Assembly: GCA_951406725.2 (NCBI GenBank) | Contig: OX597817.1 | Span: 148,862,001-148,926,000, forward strand | Source: Octopus vulgaris | Taxonomy: Eukaryota | Length of the DNA stretch: 64,000 nucleotides | Reading direction: 5' to 3' | Part shown: positions 4,231 through 63,623 of the stretch, in pieces | How positions within the stretch are numbered: position 1 is the first letter of the stretch | Layout of the letters: each line of letters opens with the position of its first letter | Position numbers and translations under genes: made by a program | Notes under the pieces: generated by a model | What the model was told of the DNA's origin: nothing | Databases searched by the model: none | What the model saw: only the letters and a program-made list of their open reading frames with translations

Positions 4231-4483
4231 TTAATAATTTTAAATATTATTAATAATTTGATCGTTAATTAGGTAAAGGCACTGATCTCAGTTTATGAAT
4301 CATGAGTTGTATCCTGATGTTAAAACAAATCACTGTCGTCATCAATTATGTAATCCAATGGCTATGTATCATTTAATAAACGCCACTCTCGGCCTTTTTT
4401 GATTTCAGATTTTGATAAAGAATTATTTCTGATTTGAATAATAAAAATGCAGTTGATCGCAATAAACAGCATGAGCACGGTAA

Positions 4484-4900
4484 GGCAGCGAACTAGCAGA
4501 AACGTTAGCACGCCAGGCGAAACGCCTCACGGTATTTCGTCTGCCGCTACGTTCTGAGTTCAAATTCCGCCAAGGTCGACTTTGCCTTTCAGCCTTTCGG
4601 GGTCGATCAAATAAGTACCAGTTACGCACTTGGGTCGATATAATCAACTTAATCCCTTTGTCTGTCCTTGTTTGTCCTCTCTGTGTTTTGCCCCTTGTGA
4701 GTAGTAAAGAAATTGGTATTTCGTCTGTCGTTATGTTCTGAGTTCAAATTCCGCCGTGGTCGACTTTGCCTTTCATCCTTTCGAGGTCGATAAATTAAGG
4801 ACCAGTTCCGCACTGGAGTCGATATACTCGACTTGATCCGTCTGTCTGTCCTTGTTTGTACTCTCTGTGTTTACCCCCTTGTGGGTAGTAAAGAAATAGG
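4484..4900 (+). mobile_element. SINE family B with internal tandem duplication (about 1.7 units)
   Basis: Body GGTATTTCGTCTG...GTAGTAAAGAAA occurs twice (about 4531-4712 and 4715-4897). Confidence 0.85.
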
Positions 4901-5499
4901 TATGTTATTGTGAAGACTGGCATGTAAATGTTTGTGAAACGTGTAGTCCTGGCACACTTCCTACGACGATCAAGAATAGCATAGTATGCTTCATTATGAG
5001 TTCTCTGTCCTCAGATTTGCCGTATTTCTCATCTTAGAAAGGTTTACTTGTCAAACCAGTCGTAGGTGTAATGATGTACACTTCTATTGAACCATAGGAT
5101 AAATACATAAAGTTACTTAAGTTGTGAATGAATTCTGGAAAAGTTTATATATTTTCTGGCATTGTGGAGACAGGATATCGACCGCACAATTTAACTTGAC
5201 AGAGGAATTAATTGAATGCATTTTCACCCAACAAACCATGATTAAGATGCTATATATCAACATCATTACTGAAACAGAGATAACAAATAACAATTCTACA
5301 CAAGTTGTTGCCTACAGAACGTAGCTCTTTCAACGGATTACGTCGCCAGCTGAACAGAACACACTGCACGCACTAAAGGTTCAGCAGGAGAATATGGTCA
5401 TTTATAGATAATGGGCAAATTTCCTTTCTATATCCTTGTTACCATGAAAAATCAATATTTTTGTCGCTTCTGGAAGCATTAATGAGACTCTTCTGCAAT

Positions 5500-6704: not shown

Positions 6705-7983
6705 GTATTGTTCTCTAGAAGACCCAAAACCCTTTCGAACGTCCAACACAGATTCCACGACTCCATACAGGCTAAACATTAACTGCTAGTGGAACATACA
6801 TACCATGAACAGGAACCTTTTTTTACCACTTCTATACACCATTTTCCTCGAATAATGGAACTGCAACAACAATATGCTTATATATCTTATTTCATTCTAT
6901 AATTTCCTTCTATATTCCCTCTCTCCTCCTTTTCCATGATAATTCGAGCTCAAGCATTTCCTCAATTTAACCTTCTCACATCGTGTCTGTGATGAAGGGA
7001 CATCCATAATATCCACGGCGTTAGGTGTAACATAATATCAGATTCGAAAATAATTTTGTAATATATTCCCCAAATTTGCGATTTCTGAATTTCCTTTCAA
7101 GTAAGAACCCAAAATGATGCACACATGAATACTTACACGCACACACACAGACGTACACATATACACATACACACATATGCATATATAAGCATGCAAACAC
7201 AAATATGGAAATGGGGAAAAAAAGAAAATTTCATATGAGTAGCGCAACAAGCAATCCACGGTCTTTTGTGTTACGTATCTTTTCAGTAGTCAACAATAAT
7301 TAAAGAGTATTAGAAAAGAAAAATGTTAACAAAGGTCCAGGCTGAATAGTATCAAACATATAAAGGCCATGAGGAAAAAACCCCGCTGCAGTAAAAGTAC
7401 GAAACAACTACCTACCTACCAACACAAACACATACATATACATATATAGCATACACATATGTACATATGCACTAATGGATATGTATATATATATATATCA
7501 CGTGATAACGTGACCGACCAGACCATCATATGGTATTACACATCACTGGTCACAATGCGTTCGCATTGTTTTAGCCTTCGAATGACGCCACTCCGCTGGC
7601 TAAGCGAGCATGTCAATATATATATATATATATATAATTTCAACAATTGAGGGTAAAATTAATTAATTAATCAATTTCACCAAGTATTCAGTATGCAAAG
7701 GGACCATTTAAGGCGAATTCAAATTATTACATTATATAAAAGGGCTTAGTAAAATAAATTACTTTGCCGCATACTGAACTCATTAGAAATAGCAGCTAAA
7801 AAAACTTTTTAAAACTATTTCCAATACTTAAAGAAAATCTCTCTCATATAGTGTTTGCTCAATTCAACTCACGAAAGTATGAGGGTAGAAACATTAAAAA
7901 ATCAAATGCAAAGGTTATTTGAGAACGTACGTTTCAAGATTAGTCAAACTCGACAGTGTTTTCAAATCCAAACCAGGGAGTTC

Positions 7984-8036
7984 TGAGCTGATGATAGAAG
8001 TGTCGAGTTTGACTAATCTTGAAACGTACGTTCTCA
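7984..8036 (+). ncRNA. Minimal type-I hammerhead ribozyme motif, copy 1
   Basis: TGAG-CTGATGA-[TAGAAGTGTCGAGTTTGACTAATCTT]-GAAAC-GTAC-GTT-CTCA. Loop III is palindromic; the stem II closing pair is non-canonical (T/T). Confidence 0.7.
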
Positions 8037-8542
8037 AATAACCTTTGCATTTGATTTTTTAATGTTTCTACCCTCATACTTTCGTGAGTTGAATTGAGCA
8101 AACACTATATGAGAGAGATTTTCTTTAAGTATTGGAAATAGTTTTAAAAAAGTTTTTTTAGCTGCTATTTCTAATGAGTTCAGTATGCGGCAAAGTAATT
8201 TATTTTACTAAGCCCTTTTATATAATGTAATAATTTGAATTCGCCTTAAATGGTCCCTTTGCATACTGAATACTTGGTGAAATTGATTAATTAATTAATT
8301 TTACCCTCAATTGTTGAAATTATAATTCATCTCTCTCTATTTAATGCCTCGGATTTTACCGAAAAAAAGCATGTTGTTTGCTGATTTTAACCCACGCTGG
8401 TGGAAGGGGAAGAGCAGAAATTCTTCGCTTGCATATTTGAATTTGCTGACACTGTTAGTTTCGAGTAGATCTTCAGAGGCGATGGGAAGCCGAAAAGGTA
8501 TGCTCCTACTTTCAGTGTTTTCAAATCCAAACCAGGGAGTTC

Positions 8543-8595
8543 TGAGCTGATGATAGAAGTGTCGAGTTTGACTAATCTTGAAACGTACGTTCTCA
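8543..8595 (+). ncRNA. Minimal type-I hammerhead ribozyme motif, copy 2
   Basis: Identical to 7984-8036, 559 bp downstream. Confidence 0.7.
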
Positions 8596-8782
8596 AATAA
8601 CCTTTGCATTTGATTTTTTAATGTTTCTACCCTCATACTTTCGTGAGTTGAATTGAGCAAACACTATATGAGAGAGATTTTCTTTAAGTATTGGAAATAG
8701 TTTTAAAAAGTTTTTTTAGCTGCTATTTCTAATGAGTTCAGTATGCGGCAAAGTAATTTATTTTACTAAGCCCTTTTATATA

Positions 8783-8841
<59 letters not shown>

Positions 8842-18020: not shown

Positions 18021-20419
18021 TATAGATAATGATTATGCATATGTACATACATGCATTCATGCAAACATATACTTAGATAAGTACGCACATTCATACACAT
18101 ACGCTCTCATGCGCGAACGGATATACACAATAATGACGCACAGTTTTAAATACGTATTGTTTCTATCTATCCATTCGTACTGAGACCCCTTAGGAAATTT
18201 CATCTCAAATCAGAGGTTTCTACCACTCATTATATGTGTATGTATTTTTGTCTACTTTTCCGATTATGCGTGTGTGTATATGCGCTAGTGCGAACACTAG
18301 CACACCGACGTCCACATCTTTACTGCGGTGATGTACTTCCAAACACTTGCGGTTTATCACTGTTCTTTATCAGCTTGAAGCTGAAATACAGAAAATTGCT
18401 CTTCTCAATGAAATTAGTTTGTAATTTATTTCGAACGGTTTTTTTCTGTTCCTGTTTACTTTTAAATGTTTTTTTTTTATCCTAGCTACATCTGAGCTAT
18501 TTTCATTTTGTTTTATTTCAAACTTACTAAGGTTTCGAATTTGACTACTCTTGTATCTTCTGTCTGAGAGAAAAAAAAATAGAAAAGTATCTGAGAAAAA
18601 AACATAAATTGTATATAAATAAAACAAAACCTTCTCATTACAAGATTTCAAATTTACTGCATAAATCCATTGTAATATAATCAGTATACAGATTATAACC
18701 ATTGTCTGGAGAACTAATTACCGATTTCCTTGGTTAAAATAGATTGATGTTCAAATTCAAGGGATCGATATTTGAACAAATATTCTAGTAGAAACGATGA
18801 GATAATAAAATTTCAAATATAAAGGAAAAAAGTAAATTACTATACGGAAGAATGGAAGAGACAGAATTAAATTATTAAATCTTGAACGCTAACTTATAAA
18901 CATGCCTTTGCGAATTGAACAGATGGCGACCAACGTATTGTGCGGTGTCTGAATTATATGATTTAACGGTGGTCTGGAATGTGTTCTCTGGCTGATATAT
19001 TGTCGCCATTTATGGGGAGGCAGTTACACATCGGCACACAAATGAACAACTTGTTTCCTACAAAAAAGAAAAAACAGAAAAATATCTAATGGATGATGTT
19101 TTTTTGTATTTAGTTTTGTCAAATATTTCCTGTTAAGGCAAAAAATTTGATGTTTGCAATAATGAATCTGGATAATAATTTGCTGTGTTTCGTTTAATGT
19201 CTAATTGTTCTTAAGGTTCCTCGACGTAAATAAACAAATGCGTTAATCTTTTTGTGGAAGGAGAGTTTACGAAGACATAATATTCTTCTAGTGTAACAGC
19301 AATCTTCATATAAACATATAAAAGCACACACACACACACACGTATATATGTATATGTGTGTGTACGTACATGCATGTAGATAGATAAACATAAACACATA
19401 AATTCGATTACAATTGGCAATTGGTTTGGACAACGAACCAATGTACTATATATCCCGTTCCATCACCAGTATCCTATGTTCTCCAGTGATCAGACCGCCA
19501 CTAACTTTTAACTGGGATTTTATCATGCTTTCAAAGAACGCCTACTATAACATATTTATTTCATAAAAGAATAGTTATCAGAAATATGGATGGAGGATTT
19601 GATGTTATTTCACAAATATAAACTTGAGACCTTATCAATACATGTAATACACAAAGAAATTCTTACGGAACTATAATTACATTCATGTCGCATAGAGCAG
19701 AACTTTCTATAAAATCCAACAAAGCTTTGTATGTTTGATTCATCAGTTAATATAATTCCAGCTGTTTCTGCTGTTCAAATGTATGTGTATCGCAGATATT
19801 TCACTCATTTTCTTGCAGTGGGACAATCAAAAAGATATCTACGGCCTTGCATTTCTTGTATATTTTTCTTATATCTGCATACATACTGTAAATGAAAACA
19901 TACGAGTTGTCTCTCTGGGTTTTATTATATACTATTCGAATTATTTATCAATTCGATTTTGATTCAACTTTATGCAAAACGAGAGATTATATAAACGAAT
20001 AAATGTTAATCTAGATTCTATGAAGCGGTTTCGTCATCCATATTTAGTTGTAACGGCATACGTATGTGTATTTCTGGCCAGAAAGTATTTTAAGATTAGT
20101 AATTTTGCACTCGTACATGTCTTGTCTCTTGTTGCCACTGATGTTTACCCAGAGGATAAGATAGATACAGCTTAACACCAGTCTCGGTGCAAGAGTTGCT
20201 ACTAGAATGCAAAATAGTGGAGCATGTTTCAGAAAAGAGAAAAAAGAATTCAAGCGACTCGCTGGCTATTCCACCAAGTTTGTTTTGGAATGCTCTATCG
20301 ACCACGAAACGATGAAAGGCAGAGATAATCTTAGTAAGATTTGAACGCAGAGCGTAGAGGGGCGAAATAAATGACAGTGTGGCTAACACAATACTCTGCT
20401 AATTCACTGCCCTTAGATA

Positions 20420-20651
20420 GGGCGACGAGCTGGCAGAATTGTTAGCACGCCAGGCGAAATGCTTAGTGGTATTTCGTCTGCCGCTACGTTCTGAGTTCAA
20501 ATTCCGCCGTGGTCGACTTTGCCTTTCATCCTTTCGGAGTCGATTAAATAAGTACCAATTAGGCACTGGGGTCGATGTAATCGACTTAGTCCCTTTGTCT
20601 GTCATTGCTTATCCCCTCTATGTTTAGCCCCTTGTGTGCAATAAAGAATTA
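20420..20651 (+). mobile_element. SINE family B with 18-bp target-site duplication
   Basis: AATTCACTGCCCTTAGAT at 20401-20418 and 20652-20669; inserted at the end of an older minus-strand copy (about 20230-20415). Confidence 0.9.
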
Positions 20652-22255: not shown

Positions 22256-22758
22256 ATAATATATAATACATTATATATATAAATATGCATATATGGGTAC
22301 AGGACATTATCAACTATGCAAATTTCATGAAATCTATAAACAACGAGAAAAGAAATGCAAAACAGCAAAGTAAACATAGAGAAAGGTCCTTTCATCAGTT
22401 GTCGGATGTCTATCTACTATCCATTTCGAGCATTCAACGACAATGTCAGTCTTCAAAGACAGATGCACCCAGAAGTTCTAAAATAAAATTTAGGTTTTAT
22501 GGAGGGTCAAACTAAGGAACAAAAACATGACAGTGGAGACATACAAGGAAACCGAACGAAAAGCAATATGGAGGGTCGTTAGACCAGAATGTGAGGAAAA
22601 TAGTGAACGCTGTGATAAATATTTTTTTCTTTTTTGAAAGAGAAAAGATAGAAGAGACTGGTTACTAAATCAAGTTATATACATAAGTGTATATATTACT
22701 TGTTTTAGTTACCAGTCTTTTACATTTCTATTTTCCTTTCATTATTTTTCCCGAGTGT

Positions 22759-23153
22759 GGAGGCGCAATGGCCCAGTGGTTAGGGCAGCGGACTCGCGGT
22801 CATAGGATCGCGGTTTCGATTCCCAGACCGGGCGTTGTGAGTGTCTATTGAGCGAAAACACCTAAAAGCTCCACGAGGCTCCGGCAGGGGATGGTGGTGA
22901 TCCCTGCTGTACTCTTTCACCACAACTTTCTCTCACTCTTACTTCCTGTTTCTGTTGTACCTGTATTTCAAAGGGCCGGCCTTGTCACTCTCTGTGTCAC
23001 GCTGAATATCCCCGAGAACTGCGATAAGGGTACACGTGTCTGTGGAGTGCTCAGCCACTTACACGTTAATTTCACGAGCAGGCTGTTCCGTTCATTCGGA
23101 TCAACCGGAACCCTCATCGTCGTAACCGACCGAGTGCTTCCATTTCCATTTCC
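22759..23153 (+). mobile_element. SINE family C (tRNA-derived head), full length with TSD
   Basis: A box TGGCCCAGTGG, B box GGTTTCGATTCC, tail (TTTCCA)n; TSD ATTTTTCCCGAG at 22744-22755 and 23154-23165. Confidence 0.9.
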
Positions 23154-26334: not shown

Positions 26335-26475
26335 GTGGTGGGGCAATAGCCCAGTGGTTAGGGCAGCGGAATCGTGGTCGGAGGATCGCGGTTTCGATTC
26401 CCAGACCGGGTCACAGAAACCGGGAAACCGGGCCCATGAGCCTGGCTAGGCTTGAAAAGAGCGATGTTTATTTTT
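26335..26475 (+). mobile_element. 141-bp mini-SINE: family C head joined to a different tail, with TSD
   Basis: TSD TAATAATGCCAACC at 26321-26334 and 26476-26489; the head matches 22759-22832, then the sequence diverges. Confidence 0.85.
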
Positions 26476-34589: not shown

Positions 34590-34866
34590 ATTTTTTCGTT
34601 TTGGGATTTGGTTTCAAGATACATTATATGAGTTCGTGTCTTGAAGCATATGCTATTGTGTCTGGGGAGAGTCATTTTCTTTTTGTGCCTTATAATGTGA
34701 CACACTCACTGGTAAAATTTCCATTTATTTCATATTATTATTTTCCTAAAATTTTCGTTGCCTCTTGCAACCTTTTCAATAGTCTTGAAATAAGTGGAAA
34801 TTTTACCGGTGAGTGTGTTACATTATAAGGCACAAAAAGAAAATGACTCTCCCCAGACACAACAGA
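34590..34866 (-). mobile_element. Nested hairpin element with 77-bp inverted arms and a U3-A8 hammerhead-like motif in the spacer
   Basis: Arms 34656-34732 and 34786-34862; minus-strand spacer CTA-TTGAAAA-G-GTTGC-aagag-GCAAC-GAAAA-TTT-TAG (34746-34782); (ATT)n on both sides. Confidence 0.65.
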
Positions 34867-35330
34867 ATTATTATTATTGTTATTATTATTATTTTTCGGG
34901 TCACTGCTTGGAATCGAACTCGGAATCTTGGGGCTTGTAGTCAGCGCTTTTAACCACTACGCCATATATCCGTCGAATGTAAATAAAGTAAATAATCTAC
35001 ATAATTCCTCATCTCTTAAATATAGAACTGTATATTACAGGAATTGGAAGTTTCGAAAATTGACTTACAAAATTATTTTCTACATGAGGAAATTTTAACC
35101 AACTTGTGATGGACAAATCCTTTCTATAGTAATTATTACAAAATATAATTCATATAAATTTGTTTATGAATACGATAATTATTGTACAATATTATATTAA
35201 ACAAACCTGTTTCATTATTCTCTGAAGTATCTACATGAAAATATCACTTGTATGTCAGATATATAACCAGATATATACATACGCACACACATATATAGAA
35301 GGAAAGATAGAGATAGAGAAAGAGAGACGT

Positions 35331-38131: not shown

Positions 38132-38442
38132 TGAGCTGTACTTACCTCGGTTGCCTTTATTAATGCTGTATTCATTTCGGTAGACTACCTGTCTGTCCTA
38201 ATGAATCCATTTTCTATCAAATGAATTCAGGCTCTTCAAAGTGACATGCAAGTACATGAGCACTCCACAGAAATTTGAATCTTCAAGGTATCTTGCAGGA
38301 AGAATAAAATGAGAACCAGTATGACAAGTTTGAATCTCTTGAACAAAAGATCTTATCTTACAAAAAATTAAGGAATCAACACAGTACAGTACTAATATGT
38401 TATCAACTCGCAAACAGCTGAAAAGTGAACCTGTCTCAGATA

Positions 38443-38675
38443 AGGTGGCGAGCTGGCAGCATCGTTAACACGCCGGGCGAAATGCTTAGCGGTATTTCGT
38501 CTGCCGTTACGCTCTGTGTTCAAATTCCGCCGAGGTCGACTTTGCCTTTTTTCCTTTTGGGGTCGATTAAATAAGCATCAGTTACGCACTGGGGTCGATA
38601 TAATCGACTTAATCCGTTTGTCTGTCCTAGTTTGTCCCCTCTGTGTTTAGACCCTTGTGGGTAGTAAAGAAATAG
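38443..38675 (+). mobile_element. SINE family B with diverged TSD
   Basis: Flanked by GTGAACCTGTCTCAGA and GTAAACCTATCTCAGA. Confidence 0.9.
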
Positions 38676-38791
38676 GTAAACCTATCTCAGACTGCAGAAA
38701 GAACAGAAACAATTATTGCTGATCATGTTATCCAATGCTCAAACCATTCTATCAACTCGCCGACTTGTTTTCTATTTTCTTTTATTTAATA

Positions 38792-39335
38792 TTTCATACA
38801 GATCATAAAGTTCTCTGTTTGATTCTAGATAGATTTCGGTTTACTGACATTTAATCTAATCGTTGGTGCACAAGGGAAGTTCTATGTATGTCCTGCAGAA
38901 CCAGCCAAGCATTCGCCAAAGGTCTTGGTGCGGTTTCATGAGGAAAGTCATAAATACTTAAATGATAGAAAATGGGGCGATCCCAGAGTACCATAACAAT
39001 AGTAAAGAATCACTGAATAGTCGACGTGATCTGTCTCATGTCAATGATAAACTGGGTAAGAAATCGCAACAAGGCCATTGGCGACTGTTTGGGTGGTTCT
39101 GCAGGACACACATAGTACTTAACTGGGCTACATATGCACTACCGGTTAGACTAAATGTCACTAAACCGAAATCTATCTGGAACCGAATAGAGAACTTTAT
39201 GATTTGTATGAAAGCGAGTAGCATTATACATTTAAGATTATTATTATGCTAGTTGCTTGTGGAATATGCATTGTCGACCATTCAGTGATTCTTTACTATT
39301 GTTAACATACTCCGGGATCGCCCCCTTTTCCATCA
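38792..39335. repeat. Interleaved inverted repeats (A-B-A'-B')
   Basis: 38792-38937 is inverted at 39060-39213; 38963-39024 is inverted at 39273-39335; copies are diverged. Confidence 0.8.
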
Positions 39336-52103: not shown

Positions 52104-52492
52104 GGAGGCGCAATGGCCCAGTAGTTAGGGCAGTGGACTCGCGGTCATAGGATCGCAGTTTCGATTCCCAGACCGGGCGTTGTGAGTGTTTATTGAGCGA
52201 AAACACCTAAAGCTCCACGAGGCTCCTGCAGGGGATGGTGGTGATCCCTGCTGTACTCTTTCACCACAACCTTCTCTCACTCTTACTTCCTGTTTCTGTT
52301 GTACCTGTATTTCAAAGGACCGGCCTTGTCACTCTCTGTGTCACGCTGAATATCCCCGAGAACTACGTTAAGGGTACACGTGTCTGTGGAGTGCTCAGCC
52401 ACTTACACGTTTATTTCACGAGCAGGCTGTTCCGTTGATTCGGATCAACCGGAACCCTCGTCGTCGTAACCGATGGAGTGCTTCCATATCCA
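52104..52492 (+). mobile_element. SINE family C, full length with 9-bp TSD
   Basis: Near-identical to 22759-23140; GTCTGTCGC at 52095-52103 and 52493-52501. An older relative follows at about 52565-52820. Confidence 0.9.
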
Positions 52493-53154
52493 GTCTGTCG
52501 CACAATTCCTGATTTATATGTAAATGAACTGGGACGGCGTGAAACGAAGTGCTTTACTTAAGGGTGAAGGCGTGTGGCTTAACGGTAATCGTATTCGGTT
52601 TACGATCGTTTGGTCCGTTTCAGTATGACACTTTACTTTCCAAACTGAGGAGTACTCGTATTTCAAAGGATTAGCCTTGTCACATGCCGTGTTACGCTGA
52701 ATCATCCTAAGAACTGCGTTAAAAGTACCCGTGTCTGCGGAGTGCTCAGCCACTTGCACGTTAATTCCACGAACAAGCTGGGCTGCTGATCAAATCAACT
52801 GGAACGCTCGTCGTCGTAACACAAAACAATCGACCGGTCCGTGAATCGAAACCCTGAGGTTGCGATAGTTAGTGCAATCCCCTAACCACTAGGCCACACG
52901 CAGCAGCCACGACTTAATTAGTGCTGGCAAGTAATTCATGACAGGATATTAAATTTGAAGAGCAAAGTCTAAAAGTAGAAAAATAGAAATTCTTGAATCA
53001 TTTAAGAAAAGAGATACGGAGAACCTGATTATTCTATTGTTATGCAAATGTTGGTTCGAATGTGATAACGAGAAGAATCAATCTATTATAGTTCAAATAC
53101 GAAAATTTCCAATGAAGGAAATGATTGTGTAATCAAATAGTTTTCTCGAAATTA

Positions 53155-53386
53155 AGGGTGCAAGCTGACAGAACCGTTAGCACGCCGGGCGAAATGCGTT
53201 GCCATATTTCGTCTGTCGTTACGTTCTGATTTCAAATTCCGCCGAGGTCGACTTTGCTTTTCATCCTTTCGAGGTCGATAAATCAAGTAGCAATTACGTT
53301 CTGGGGTCGATGTAATCGACTTAATCCGTTTGTCTGTCCTTGTTTGTCCCTTCTATGTTTAGCTCCTTGTGGGCAATAAAGAAACA
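53155..53386 (+). mobile_element. SINE family B with TSD
   Basis: Flanked by ATAGTTTT(T)CTCGAAA on both sides. Confidence 0.9.
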
Positions 53387-59469: not shown

Positions 59470-59868
59470 GCGGTTTCAAATTTTGGCTCATTACCCGCAA
59501 TTCCGCGGGAGGGGGTAAATCGATTATATCGACCCCAGTACTCAGGCTGGTACTTATTTTATCGACCCCGAAAAGATGAAAAGCAAAGTCGACCTCGGCG
59601 GAATTTGAATTCAGAATGTAACGATGAACGAAATACCTATTTCTTTACTACCCACAAGGAGCTAAACCCAGAGAGGACAAACAAGGACAGACAAACGGAT
59701 TAAGTTGATTATATCCACCCCAGTGCGTAACTGGTACTTAATTTATCGACCCCGAAAGGATGAAAGGCAAAGTCGACCTCGGCGGAATTTGAACTCAGAA
59801 CGTAACGGCAGACGAGATACCGATAAGCATTTTGCCCAGTGCGCTAACGATTCTTCGAGCTCGCCGAC
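59470..59868 (-). mobile_element. SINE family B with tandem internal duplication
   Basis: Two copies of ATCGACCCCGAAA.GATGAAA.GCAAAGTCGACCTCGGCGG. Confidence 0.9.
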
Positions 59869-61264
59869 TTAAAGGAATGCAACATATTAACTACTAACAT
59901 AAGTGAAATGAATACAAATAATAATCGTAACTTATTCTGAGATGTAACACAACTTGAGCCTAGCTTTTCTCTAGCACGTTCGATAGCAATAAGCAAAGCA
60001 GGAATTCTATTATGAACGAAACCTTTTATTTTCAACGGAACCTAAATATGGTGGTGTGAACTCCGTTGTTTTTCGAAATGCATTAGCACTGTTAACAGAA
60101 TGAAACATCATGCCATCGATTAACCAATAACAATAAAAGTGAATAAATAACTGTCCTGTATATTTCCACTCACCAGAAAAGGTCGGTAAAGTTTAATCAG
60201 CAATCTTTCTTAATTTCCCTTCTGTCGTAAGCAATACCCCAACCGATGATGACCTTATAAGGAATTTAATATATGGGCGATGATTATGTTGTGCTGTTCG
60301 ATATAAGTTCGATTAGAATATGTGGAGACAATAGTCTTTTCTTTAAGATATAGTAAAACCTGGCCGACTTTCCAAAACAGGATAATAGATAACTATATTG
60401 TTTGGCCTTGCCAACAAATTATATATATTATCTTTAGATTGAGGTTTGTATTCGGACTTTGTCTTTAATATGTCTTCATAGATTTTTGCTTCTTTACTTT
60501 TCATTATAAATTACCATTGTTTCGAAATTGGCTTCAACAAATCAAATTATCTTCTAATACGCATACCCCAACCCATATTCAGATATAAAAGTTCTCTAAA
60601 AGAAAAAAAAGTAGCATTATCATTTCCTAGCAACATGCATTAACAGATGGCCTGATACAAAGTCCAGCACGCACGCATACACACATATATATATATACTG
60701 TCGCTCTACTCCCTTGAGGTTTCCGTATTAAACTTCTTATTTCTGACTTGCTGATGGTCATCAATGAGTAACATCTATGATTCACTTATCCGTATGAAAT
60801 CTCACGTTATTAGACAGTAAGGCACTAGCTTTCCCTTTACAATTCCCTCTTTCTCTGCATAGGAACCTGACTCTAAATTAATCACTTTAATTCCTATGCC
60901 TTCGTAATTACAAGTTACCATTCGGTCCGAGTGACCTTTTAGATGTAATATTCATGTACACTCAATAAATTAGTGTTTAGTTGTCCAACAAAGAATTCAG
61001 GAGACATAACTAACCACCAAACAACACGCCAATTCTAACACCCAATATTCATATTCAACCAAATGCAGACACGTAATTGAAGTGTGACGTGTACAAACAA
61101 GATAGTACAACATTAGTTTCTGCAAAAGGAACCCAAGCCACGCCACACAGAGAAGGTCCTTGCAGGTCGCTTAAAATCACATATAACAATGTCAAATATT
61201 CACGAAGTTAACTTAAATCCAATAATACCTTGGTTCTGTGTCACCATCTTGTGAGCAACCAGTT

Positions 61265-62400: not shown

Positions 62401-62457
62401 TAGGCTGAAAAAAGATTGGAGAAATATGCAAATCAAACTTTAATATATCAAGGACAG

Positions 62458-62841
62458 AAGTAAGTCTAAGACATTTCAATTTAAGAATGAATTTAATAAA
62501 AACGATTTTAACGAATTATTTAAAAATTTACATAAAGGAGATATTACTTGATTCGATGAATCTCATCTTGTTAAATATTAGTAAACAATTATAACAATTT
62601 GCAGTGAAAACAATTGATCTTCTATCTGGGAGTCAAGAACATGTCTGCCTTGGGATCAGGACATGTTTTTGAACCCCAGACAGAAAATAAACGGTCTTTC
62701 CTTCAAAGTTTTATGAATTTTTACTGATAAGGTAAGAATCATCGAAACCGTAATAACATTTTTATGTAATCTTTTAAATAATTCTTTAGAAATAATTTTT
62801 ATCTGATTTCCATCTTAAATTGAAATGTCTTAGACTTACTT
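62458..62841. mobile_element. Foldback/MITE-like palindromic element
   Basis: Perfect 29-bp terminal inverted repeats AAGTAAGTCTAAGACATTTCAATTTAAGA; the interior is an imperfect palindrome centred near 62651; no clear TSD. Confidence 0.8.
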
Positions 62842-62909
62842 ATGTGTTGTTTCTACCTCTTTGGTAGACGGAAATTAAAAGAAACCTGTTGTTTATATAT
62901 ATATACAAC

Positions 62910-63580
62910 TCCAGCCAGTGGCACAACCCCTACCGACGATGTTCAGGGACATTCCGATACTATGTCACCGACTGCCGGCAATGTCTCGTTTCTCTTCCTC
63001 TTGCTCTTTTTTCTTTTCACCTGAGGGAGGGCGCGTCTCCTCCGTGACCGGGAGATTCGCCTCCTCACTCTTATTCCTAGGAATCTTCGGTGAGCACCCA
63101 TTGTTGATCACTTTCTCCCTCTTGCGGCCCTTCTTTGACGGGTCCTCCGCCTCCTCAGCCGCCTTTGTTTCCTCTTCTACAGAGGTCTCAACCAACTGCT
63201 CCAGGACCTTACTTTGTTCCTGGGGACAGTTTTTCTTTATACGGCCAGGCTCCAGACACCTGGGGTGGAGGCGACCCTGAAGAATCCCCGGGTACATGCA
63301 CCCGGTAATTTTCAAAAATTCTAGAAAAACCAGATTGGCTGATTGGGTCCACATGGTCAAAACAGCTTTTGACCCAACCCAATCAGCCGCAGGAAAAACT
63401 TTCACCATCAGGAGCTTGGCTCTGCTGCCACCCAGACCCCGGCGGATAGTCTCCTCTATCTACTCGGGCTTAATTCCGGGTGGCAACCCGCAGACCCAAG
63501 CTCTTGTCAACCTCTTCCCACAATACGTGGGAAGAAACAAAATTTCTCTGCCCTCTAAGGGCTAGCCACGCAGGGAGACT
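62910..63580 (-). pseudogene. LINE (L1/Tx1-type) ORF1 remnant
   Basis: EGREILFLPTYCGKRLTRAWVCGLPPGIKPE*IEETIRR...GRLHPRCLEPGRIKKNCP (decayed CCHC knuckle), then a K/E-rich tail; in-frame stop; GC-richer than the flanks. Confidence 0.6.
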
Positions 63581-63584
63581 GACC

Positions 63585-63623
63585 TGGTAAGCAAACTACT
63601 TACTACACAGCCACTCCTGCGCC
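63585..63623 (-). mobile_element. SINE family A head fragment
   Basis: TGGTAAGCAAACTACTTACTACACAGCCACTCCTGCGCC. Confidence 0.7.

Follow-up and report, generated by a model that had tools for sequence, protein, structure and literature searches.

A very recent Penelope-type insertion with two hammerhead-ribozyme motifs in the Octopus vulgaris genome

What kind of event leaves a near-perfect palindrome, a tandem repeat and two identical hammerhead motifs side by side within little more than one kilobase of octopus DNA? The locus that raises this question occupies positions 7633-8787 of a 64,000-nt stretch of contig OX597817.1 of Octopus vulgaris, hereafter the window, and a preliminary description made from the letters alone had read it as a young element that could release a monomeric RNA by dimeric hammerhead cleavage. 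Our analysis identifies it as a small non-coding element of Penelope type, inserted very recently and bearing two hammerhead-ribozyme motifs.

Global alignment and end-mapping bear out the geometry given in the preliminary description, namely arms of 323 bp, a spacer of 45 bp and a second hammerhead supplied by a direct repeat at a distance of 559 nt: Read in reverse complement, positions 7633-7955 (323 bp) reproduce 8001-8324 (324 bp), with the spacer at 7956-8000, and the segment 7954-8229 recurs at 8513-8787 with a period of 559, to which Tandem Repeats Finder is blind as its longest period is 500. The locus measures 1.15 kb in total and contains 1.49 tandem units with a complete hammerhead in each. 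The inverted arm includes the 3′ half of hammerhead 1 (8001-8036), which had been overlooked. Two features of Penelope-like elements (PLEs) are thereby present, pseudo-LTRs in the form of the partial tandem 7954-8229/8513-8787 and an adjacent inverted, 5′-truncated copy at 7633-7955. The features are, in order of position:

7617-7636, no strand: left (TA)n target remnant, overlapping the end of the inverted arm by 4 nt (TATA)
7633-7955, minus strand: inverted, 5′-truncated copy; begins within helix II, without the first core box and therefore without a complete hammerhead
7954-7955, no strand: head-to-head inversion junction with 2-nt microhomology
7954-8229, plus strand: upstream direct repeat (pseudo-LTR), 276 bp, 5′-truncated 34 nt ahead of the hammerhead core
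7984-8036, plus strand: hammerhead 1, type I, with helix I at 7984-7987/8033-8036, core at 7988-7994 and U17 at 8032
8033-8591, plus strand: unit from predicted cut to predicted cut, 559 nt (558 in the 5-A allele), 34% G+C, no protein homolog found
8111-8337, plus strand: predicted four-hairpin domain with a 9-bp closing stem, holding both 3′ end points, 8229 and 8324
8230-8324, plus strand: extension of 95 nt, present in the inverted arm and absent from the right-hand copy, tail-like
8325-8512, plus strand: single-copy body, 188 bp, without excess folding (z −0.3) or coding match
8513-8787, plus strand: downstream direct repeat (pseudo-LTR), 275 bp, placed by alignment and end-mapping
8543-8595, plus strand: hammerhead 2, identical to hammerhead 1, with U17 at 8591
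8786-8836, no strand: right (TA)n target remnant, overlapping the element end by 2 nt (TA)

The age of the insertion can be read from the comparison of its copies. As had been reported, they differ by a single homopolymer indel: The A run at 8146-8151 counts six A, whereas the inverted arm and the right-hand copy both have five. Not one substitution separates the copies in 323 and in 275 compared bases (95% upper bound about 1%), and the claim of youth is upheld by this divergence of less than about 1%; the interspersed repeats of the window, in comparison, mostly show mutual identities of 70-91%, with one pair at 96%. A blastn search found no further copy of the element in the 64-kb window, where the hammerhead pattern matches only the two known sites, and exact matches in a prokaryotic genome collection numbered zero, as expected.

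The second-youngest repeat of the window is the pair just mentioned, 390 bp long (22759-23148 and 52104-52492, 96% identity), which starts like a tRNA-derived SINE and has partial copies at 26335-26410 and 52652-52820; the tile at 22611, just upstream of it, folds strongly (z −8.4). A SINE-like family of about 240 bp (75-90% identity), which we take to resemble octopus SINEs, occurs at 4481-4903 and in more than ten other places, for instance at 20412-20651, 38435-38678, 53153-53384 and 59517-59871. Three older, self-complementary MITE-like elements with long terminal inverted repeats (62454-62845, 38792-39213 and 34650-34868; arms 72-80%) contain no hammerhead according to our descriptor. Near the right end of the window (63309-63620 and, on the minus strand, 62965-63459), a G+C-rich stretch that folds strongly (z −12.6; minus strand z −6.2) is found at a minus-strand frame of 164 codons without Pfam match and upstream of it. 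Rfam returned only a weak miRNA match there, and the stretch looks like the 5′ region of another retroelement.

How did the element enter its site? Both of its 3′ ends are fused into one (TA)n tract, and no target duplication is readable. By chance, a 2-nt TA overlap would be expected at 17% of positions and a 4-nt overlap at 1.3%. The outer flanks of the element have no counterpart in the window, which is evidence against a read fold-back. The proposal of a Penelope-type layout is well founded, since the arrangement matches the published scheme for PLEs, which comprises a partial tandem, an adjacent inverted 5′-truncated copy, a tail of 30-40 bp and a microsatellite target (PMC8557442); the extension at one end is 95 nt long, compared with the published 30-40 bp.

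Several observations concern the flanks and potential signals of the element. On its left it is adjoined by a G+C-richer segment of 118 bp (7499-7616) that lies between two (TA)n tracts, is single-copy in the window and may be an older insertion in the same microsatellite. A TATA-box-like motif opposite the hammerhead strand occurs at 8214-8228 (minus), 8772-8786 (minus) and 7729-7743 (plus), some 140 nt ahead of the minus-strand ATG. Its activity would lead to antisense transcripts and, in the case of the left arm, to transcription through into the hairpin. At 8498-8515, just 5′ of hammerhead 2, a donor-like splice signal is followed within only 18 nt by an acceptor-like one, and the truncated upstream copy begins at the acceptor CAG (7954). 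In Penelope of D. virilis an intron ends at helix I (PMC4209133), and the signals are possibly an intron remnant or due to chance; the 18-nt GT...AG stretch itself was rejected as an intron because it is too short.

Both hammerhead motifs are real and not chance occurrences. Our type I descriptor, which specifies the core, GAAA and a helix I of at least four Watson-Crick pairs and leaves helix II free, matched only at 7988 and 8547 on both strands of the 64-kb window, whereas in 100 local Markov shuffles such loci averaged 0.01 per window and none of the 100 had one with a palindromic helix III; the two motifs named in the preliminary description are thereby confirmed. Rfam yielded no match in the whole window at the gathering score and, at E values up to 10 over 7600-8800, 13 weak matches with no hammerhead among them, the best being a plant miRNA model on the hairpin. 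Hammerhead 1 has a U7995·U8020 closure, a helix II of 3 bp, a 3×3 loop and another 3 bp, and a palindromic helix III at 8024-8031. Standard hammerhead numbering places the predicted cuts after 8032 and 8591. The motif is of type I and sits in the pseudo-LTR on the sense strand, as judged from the layout and the folding bias.

The U·U (T/T) pair and the GUU triplet had been suspected of inactivating the ribozyme. Neither is a sign of decay, as both are common in PLE hammerheads. In the Hydra-clade hammerhead table in the supplement of Craig et al. (PMC8557442; 26 rows and 25 families, counted by eye), the U·U closure is found in 14 of 25 families, U17 in 10 and both in eight, with 11 of the 14 U·U families coming from Hydra magnipapillata and hence not independent. 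The general PLE alignment in the supplement of Cervera and de la Peña (PMC4209133; 44 rows, counted by eye and taken by position because the GAAA column is displaced) has U17 in 20 of 44 rows, including all three molluscs, and the U·U closure in one, from Drosophila willistoni. We therefore regard the two traits as an inherited style that leans to Hydra. The real weak point of the hammerhead is its broken helix II with the 3×3 loop; the helices in the Hydra table are unbroken. Three short motifs of the element are absent from the available supplement of Craig et al. (PMC8557442), in which line breaks may hide matches, and listings from open-licence PubMed Central and bioRxiv contained no paper on GUU rates in hammerheads.

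Would the two motifs cut? We modelled cleavage with nearest-neighbour energies, which ignore tertiary contacts and proteins. A single motif attains −2.4 kcal/mol in the active fold. In a 7960-8620 transcript, the model agrees with the suggested dimerisation via the helix III palindrome, pairing the palindromes at probabilities of 0.89-1.0. The helix III duplex is predicted to zip on into the core (A14·U17 at 0.89 and 0.70, four more pairs at 0.59-0.79), and helix I pairs at about 0.10 for the cut at 8591 and at 0.003 for the cut at 8032. Relative to the minimum, the active dimer is less favourable by 6.5 kcal/mol in this transcript, by 9.3 kcal/mol in 7954-8787 and by 170.6 kcal/mol in the read-through RNA 7633-8787, in which hammerhead 2 alone would cost 5.4 kcal/mol. 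With such costs and such poor pairing of helix I, the modelling does not support the suggested release of a 559-nt monomer and predicts that, even without the arm, the dimer is mostly blocked and one-sided. This weak predicted cutting agrees with published behaviour: Metazoan PLE hammerheads are described as cutting poorly even as dimers (PMC4209133), that of an anole PLE cuts only with its protein, and the uncut RNA is the template for insertion (PMC11167929), and one of nine Xenopus hammerhead dimers cut in vitro (10.64898/2026.07.22.740005).

The preliminary description had further expected a dsRNA hairpin of more than 300 bp on read-through. The hairpin itself stands, with all 323 arm bases predicted to pair with copy 1, and if transcribed it would form on either strand at −535 kcal/mol; its combination with dimeric cleavage does not. 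Read-through buries hammerhead 1 in the hairpin, and consequently hairpin and 559-nt monomer are alternatives and not joint products, between which, in the model, the transcription start decides. Editing of the hairpin by ADAR is plausible by analogy but ordinary: Penelope copies are reported to be heavily edited in lizard, and octopus to be rich in such dsRNA (PMC5625713).

More conspicuous than the body of the unit is the folded domain at 8111-8337, of which the preliminary description was unaware. It is predicted to contain 70 pairs, nine of them G·U, and reaches a z of −8.0 on the sense strand versus −4.8 on the antisense strand, with none of 200 shuffles being equally stable; among control tiles of 238 nt with 20 shuffles each (133 of 197 eligible tiles), two of 133 scored below it. 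This control repeated a noisy one with 41 of 75 eligible tiles and eight shuffles each, in which four of the 41 fell below the −5.6 of the monomer, two of the four without a palindrome. The circular-fold z of −7.2 stems from the domain (8110-8340) and not from the whole unit, the remainder of which is not unusually folded. Both end points, 8229 and 8324, fall at partly open positions of the predicted fold. In the anole element, reverse transcription begins internally in a stem-loop 3′ of the hammerhead, and its two start sites determine the tail (PMC11167929); by analogy with this internal initiation the domain is a likely candidate for an RT docking site.

The coding content of the element is slight, its longest frames having 108 aa and 74 aa. 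The 108-codon frame on the minus strand (8337-8663) is mildly unusual, its length being reached by 34 of 1000 shuffles, while frames of 74 codons as on the plus strand appear in 352 of 1000 and are at chance level. For the minus-strand frame, a short query that makes for a weak negative, we found no credible relative in Pfam, among the longer proteins of the 90% set, in the Atlas or among the 50% representatives; two matches (E 5e-4 and 8e-4, four stretches each) were to internally repetitive proteins and were rejected. The plus-strand frame, likewise a short query and a weak negative, gave nothing credible in the protein searches. No RT or GIY-YIG endonuclease remnant and no Pfam match was found, which with queries of 74-108 aa is weak evidence, and a likeness of both frames to the ends of Hydra proteins, seen by eye, was dropped because the resemblances are too short. 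Having no RT-EN frame, the element stands outside the autonomous EN+ Penelope-like elements. As to the surroundings, no host gene was found in the window: 117 filtered frames of at least 55 aa together with the element frame gave sub-threshold Pfam matches for four of 118, none of them near the element. A sigma-70 scan was disregarded as irrelevant to an animal genome.

The explanation that we consider probable is that a short non-autonomous element, known from this one locus, retrotransposed in a single event very recently, copied by a PLE RT-endonuclease that is most likely of the Hydra type. The PLE protein would bind the folded domain 3′ of the hammerhead and nick both (TA)n strands. Two cDNAs of 834 nt and 323 nt would then be primed via short TA overlaps at internal sites (the equivalents of 8229 and 8324), and their far ends would join through the 2-nt microhomology; an identical product would arise if a single cDNA snapped back, a route for which the 47-nt spacing of the truncation points speaks mildly and against which the indel pattern speaks mildly. 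Three unscarred passes through the cut site imply that the template would be an uncut multimer or a re-ligated circle; a linear monomer that had been cut would fit only if the enzyme switches templates. The hammerhead has probably been inherited as part of the pseudo-LTR; as naked RNA it would, judging from the modelling, be slow or blocked, and it would depend on protein and on a partner copy; in read-through RNA from the locus, the 323-bp hairpin would silence hammerhead 1. The assignment to a clade is soft, since the octopus Hydra hammerhead differs and a look-alike closure occurs in a D. willistoni element typed as Penelope. Listings from open-licence PubMed Central and bioRxiv contained no paper on twin priming in PLEs.

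In a bolder reading, which we regard as unlikely, the element would parasitise a Hydra-type PLE of a cephalopod, form circles and be active to this day, with a protein-gated ribozyme. Rolling reverse transcription over 1.5 laps of a 558-nt circle, together with a second priming on the other target strand, would produce the insertion; an A14·U17 zipper, prolonging the helix III palindrome, would keep the hammerhead off until the PLE protein opens it, and the four-hairpin domain of 230 nt would be the RT docking site. If true, this would provide direct structural evidence for PLE enzymes integrating retrozyme-like RNAs, a mobilisation so far argued from co-occurrence and phylogeny (PMC7229834; 10.64898/2026.07.22.740005), and would furnish a minimal RNA with which to assay (TA)n-targeted insertion.

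Is the 559-nt unit an element in its own right? It might instead be the one-off product of an internal deletion of an autonomous PLE, in which a template jump during this insertion took the RT out of the 3′ UTR into the 5′ UTR and the unit never formed a family. The same termini and target would be expected from such an accident, a second copy is absent from the 64 kb, the body 8325-8512 has no excess structure (z −0.3) and could hide the jump, and a 68-codon frame runs from an ATG at 8344 to a stop within the hammerhead core. We nevertheless doubt this origin: No RT or endonuclease remnant was found, frames of 74 codons turn up in 352 of 1000 shuffles, the closing stem of the folded domain (8329-8337) extends past the repeated part, and short non-autonomous PLE derivatives have already been published (PMC8557442, PMC4209133, 10.1101/596502, 10.64898/2026.07.22.740005). 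Quite improbable, in our judgement, is a hammerhead satellite or retrozyme dimer whose mirror arm was added without twin priming by fold-back at the DNA level (replication slip, break repair). It would account for the 2-nt microhomology at the junction and for the 5′ truncation points lying only 47 nt apart on the unit, which would happen about one time in six by chance if they were independent; but the arm has its 5-A allele in common with the distant copy and not with the neighbouring one, its end falls in the same (TA)n tract and overlaps it by TATA, and adjacent inverted copies are a stated PLE trait (PMC8557442), whereas the available text of the retrozyme papers hardly speaks of inversions (no occurrence in PMC7229834, one in a reference title in 10.64898/2026.07.22.740005).

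That the palindrome is an artefact of assembly or of a read folding back on itself is very improbable, even though it is near-perfect, its arms disagree only in a homopolymer indel, the kind of error usual in long reads, and PLE structures are known to disturb assemblies (PMC8557442). The mirroring ends exactly at the (TA)n tract with unrelated outer flanks, the spacer belongs to the second, direct repeat, and the pattern fits a biological scheme in four independent respects. To a host-selected locus we assign only the slightest probability, be it for the hairpin and small RNAs or for a minus-strand gene of a small protein (108 codons, 8337-8663, TATA-like box upstream): Zero divergence makes the locus too young for visible selection, the frame has no homolog and its two weak matches are repetitive proteins, folding bias and hammerheads favour the plus strand, and no gene was found in the window, points that stand against the −535 kcal/mol of the hairpin on either strand and a frame length found in only 34 of 1000 shuffles.

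What does the locus add? Tandem and inverted PLE layouts, PLE hammerheads that need dimers, short derivatives and the editing of Penelope dsRNA have all been published already. New is an undamaged 1.15-kb example that combines a retrozyme-sized non-coding unit with the complete signature of PLE integration, and the freshness of this signature implies a recently active PLE enzyme in the genome; cephalopod Naiads are reported as long dead (PMC8557442). In open-licence PubMed Central and bioRxiv we came across no account of such an element from a cephalopod, and Repbase or Dfam may well hold one. As a clean test case for the copying of small elements, one short amplicon suits three open questions, namely the role of the PLE hammerhead, the formation of tandem and inverted insertions and the RNA structure recognised by the enzyme, the last of which is named as open in section 15 of PMC8557442.

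Among known systems, PLEs of the Hydra clade (Craig et al. 2021, PMC8557442) share with the element the (TA)n target, the U·U closure, the GUU triplet, a long palindromic helix III, a hammerhead on the sense strand within a few hundred nt of the 3′ end and the inverted 5′-truncated copy, which is noted for Penelope-13_HM. In contrast to them, the element has no RT-EN frame, a unit of 559 nt versus about 2-3 kb, an interrupted helix II and an extension of 95 nt. The clade, which belongs to the C-terminal EN+ PLEs, has a member in Octopus bimaculoides, Hydra-1_Obim (PMC8557442). Its hammerhead, the one octopus Hydra hammerhead listed there, has another sequence and a G·U closure, and because of this different sequence the element is not Hydra-1_Obim. 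Insertion into (TA)n also occurs in Naiad and Neptune and is thus not diagnostic of Hydra, a clade defined by RWK, DKT, a CxCX5C linker, the lack of CCHH and RT phylogeny (PMC8557442).

Animal non-LTR retrozymes, for which mobilisation by PLEs has been proposed (Cervera and de la Peña 2020, PMC7229834; Li et al. 2026, 10.64898/2026.07.22.740005), resemble the element in being short, non-coding and low in G+C, with a self-paired tandem unit and a type I hammerhead per repeat. Accordingly, the element has a complete type I hammerhead per unit, is non-coding and has a G+C content of 34%, below 50%; its monomer of 559 nt lies outside the range of 170-400 nt given in PMC7229834 and inside that of 51-972 bp given in 10.64898/2026.07.22.740005. 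It differs from retrozymes by its PLE-variant hammerhead, by having only 1.49 units and by its inverted arm. A canonical hammerhead has a 6-bp helix I, a 4-bp helix II and G10.1-C11.1 (PMC4209133), whereas the element has a 4-bp helix I, a broken helix II and the U·U closure. Moreover, retrozymes are known as linear and circular RNA with self-cleavage, and the element from sequence and a folding model.

The D. willistoni PLE motif (PMC4209133) has in common with the element the U·U closure, the AGA/UCU first stem and a palindromic helix III, and differs in having A17 instead of U17, an unbroken helix II and arrays of up to 85 units. In this species one hammerhead family, which may differ from the listed motif, is found both in PLEs and in short 450-bp tandem repeats, and the element with the closest look-alike closure was typed as Penelope (PMC4209133). 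For the green anole's Poseidon element PAc (Frangieh et al. 2024, PMC11167929), nicking and extension of both strands were demonstrated, as we infer them for the octopus element; internal initiation at two stem-loop sites 3′ of the hammerhead on an uncut RNA template serves as our model, and the PAc hammerhead is active only with protein. PAc differs in being autonomous and of another clade, with start sites that lie 30-40 nt apart and share no homology with the target. Short non-autonomous PLE derivatives are described from Chlamydomonas (PMC8557442), butterflies (10.1101/596502), D. willistoni (PMC4209133) and Xenopus (10.64898/2026.07.22.740005), and it is like such a derivative that the octopus element behaves: It stands outside the autonomous PLEs, as it has no RT-EN, and outside the canonical retrozymes, as its hammerhead is a variant.
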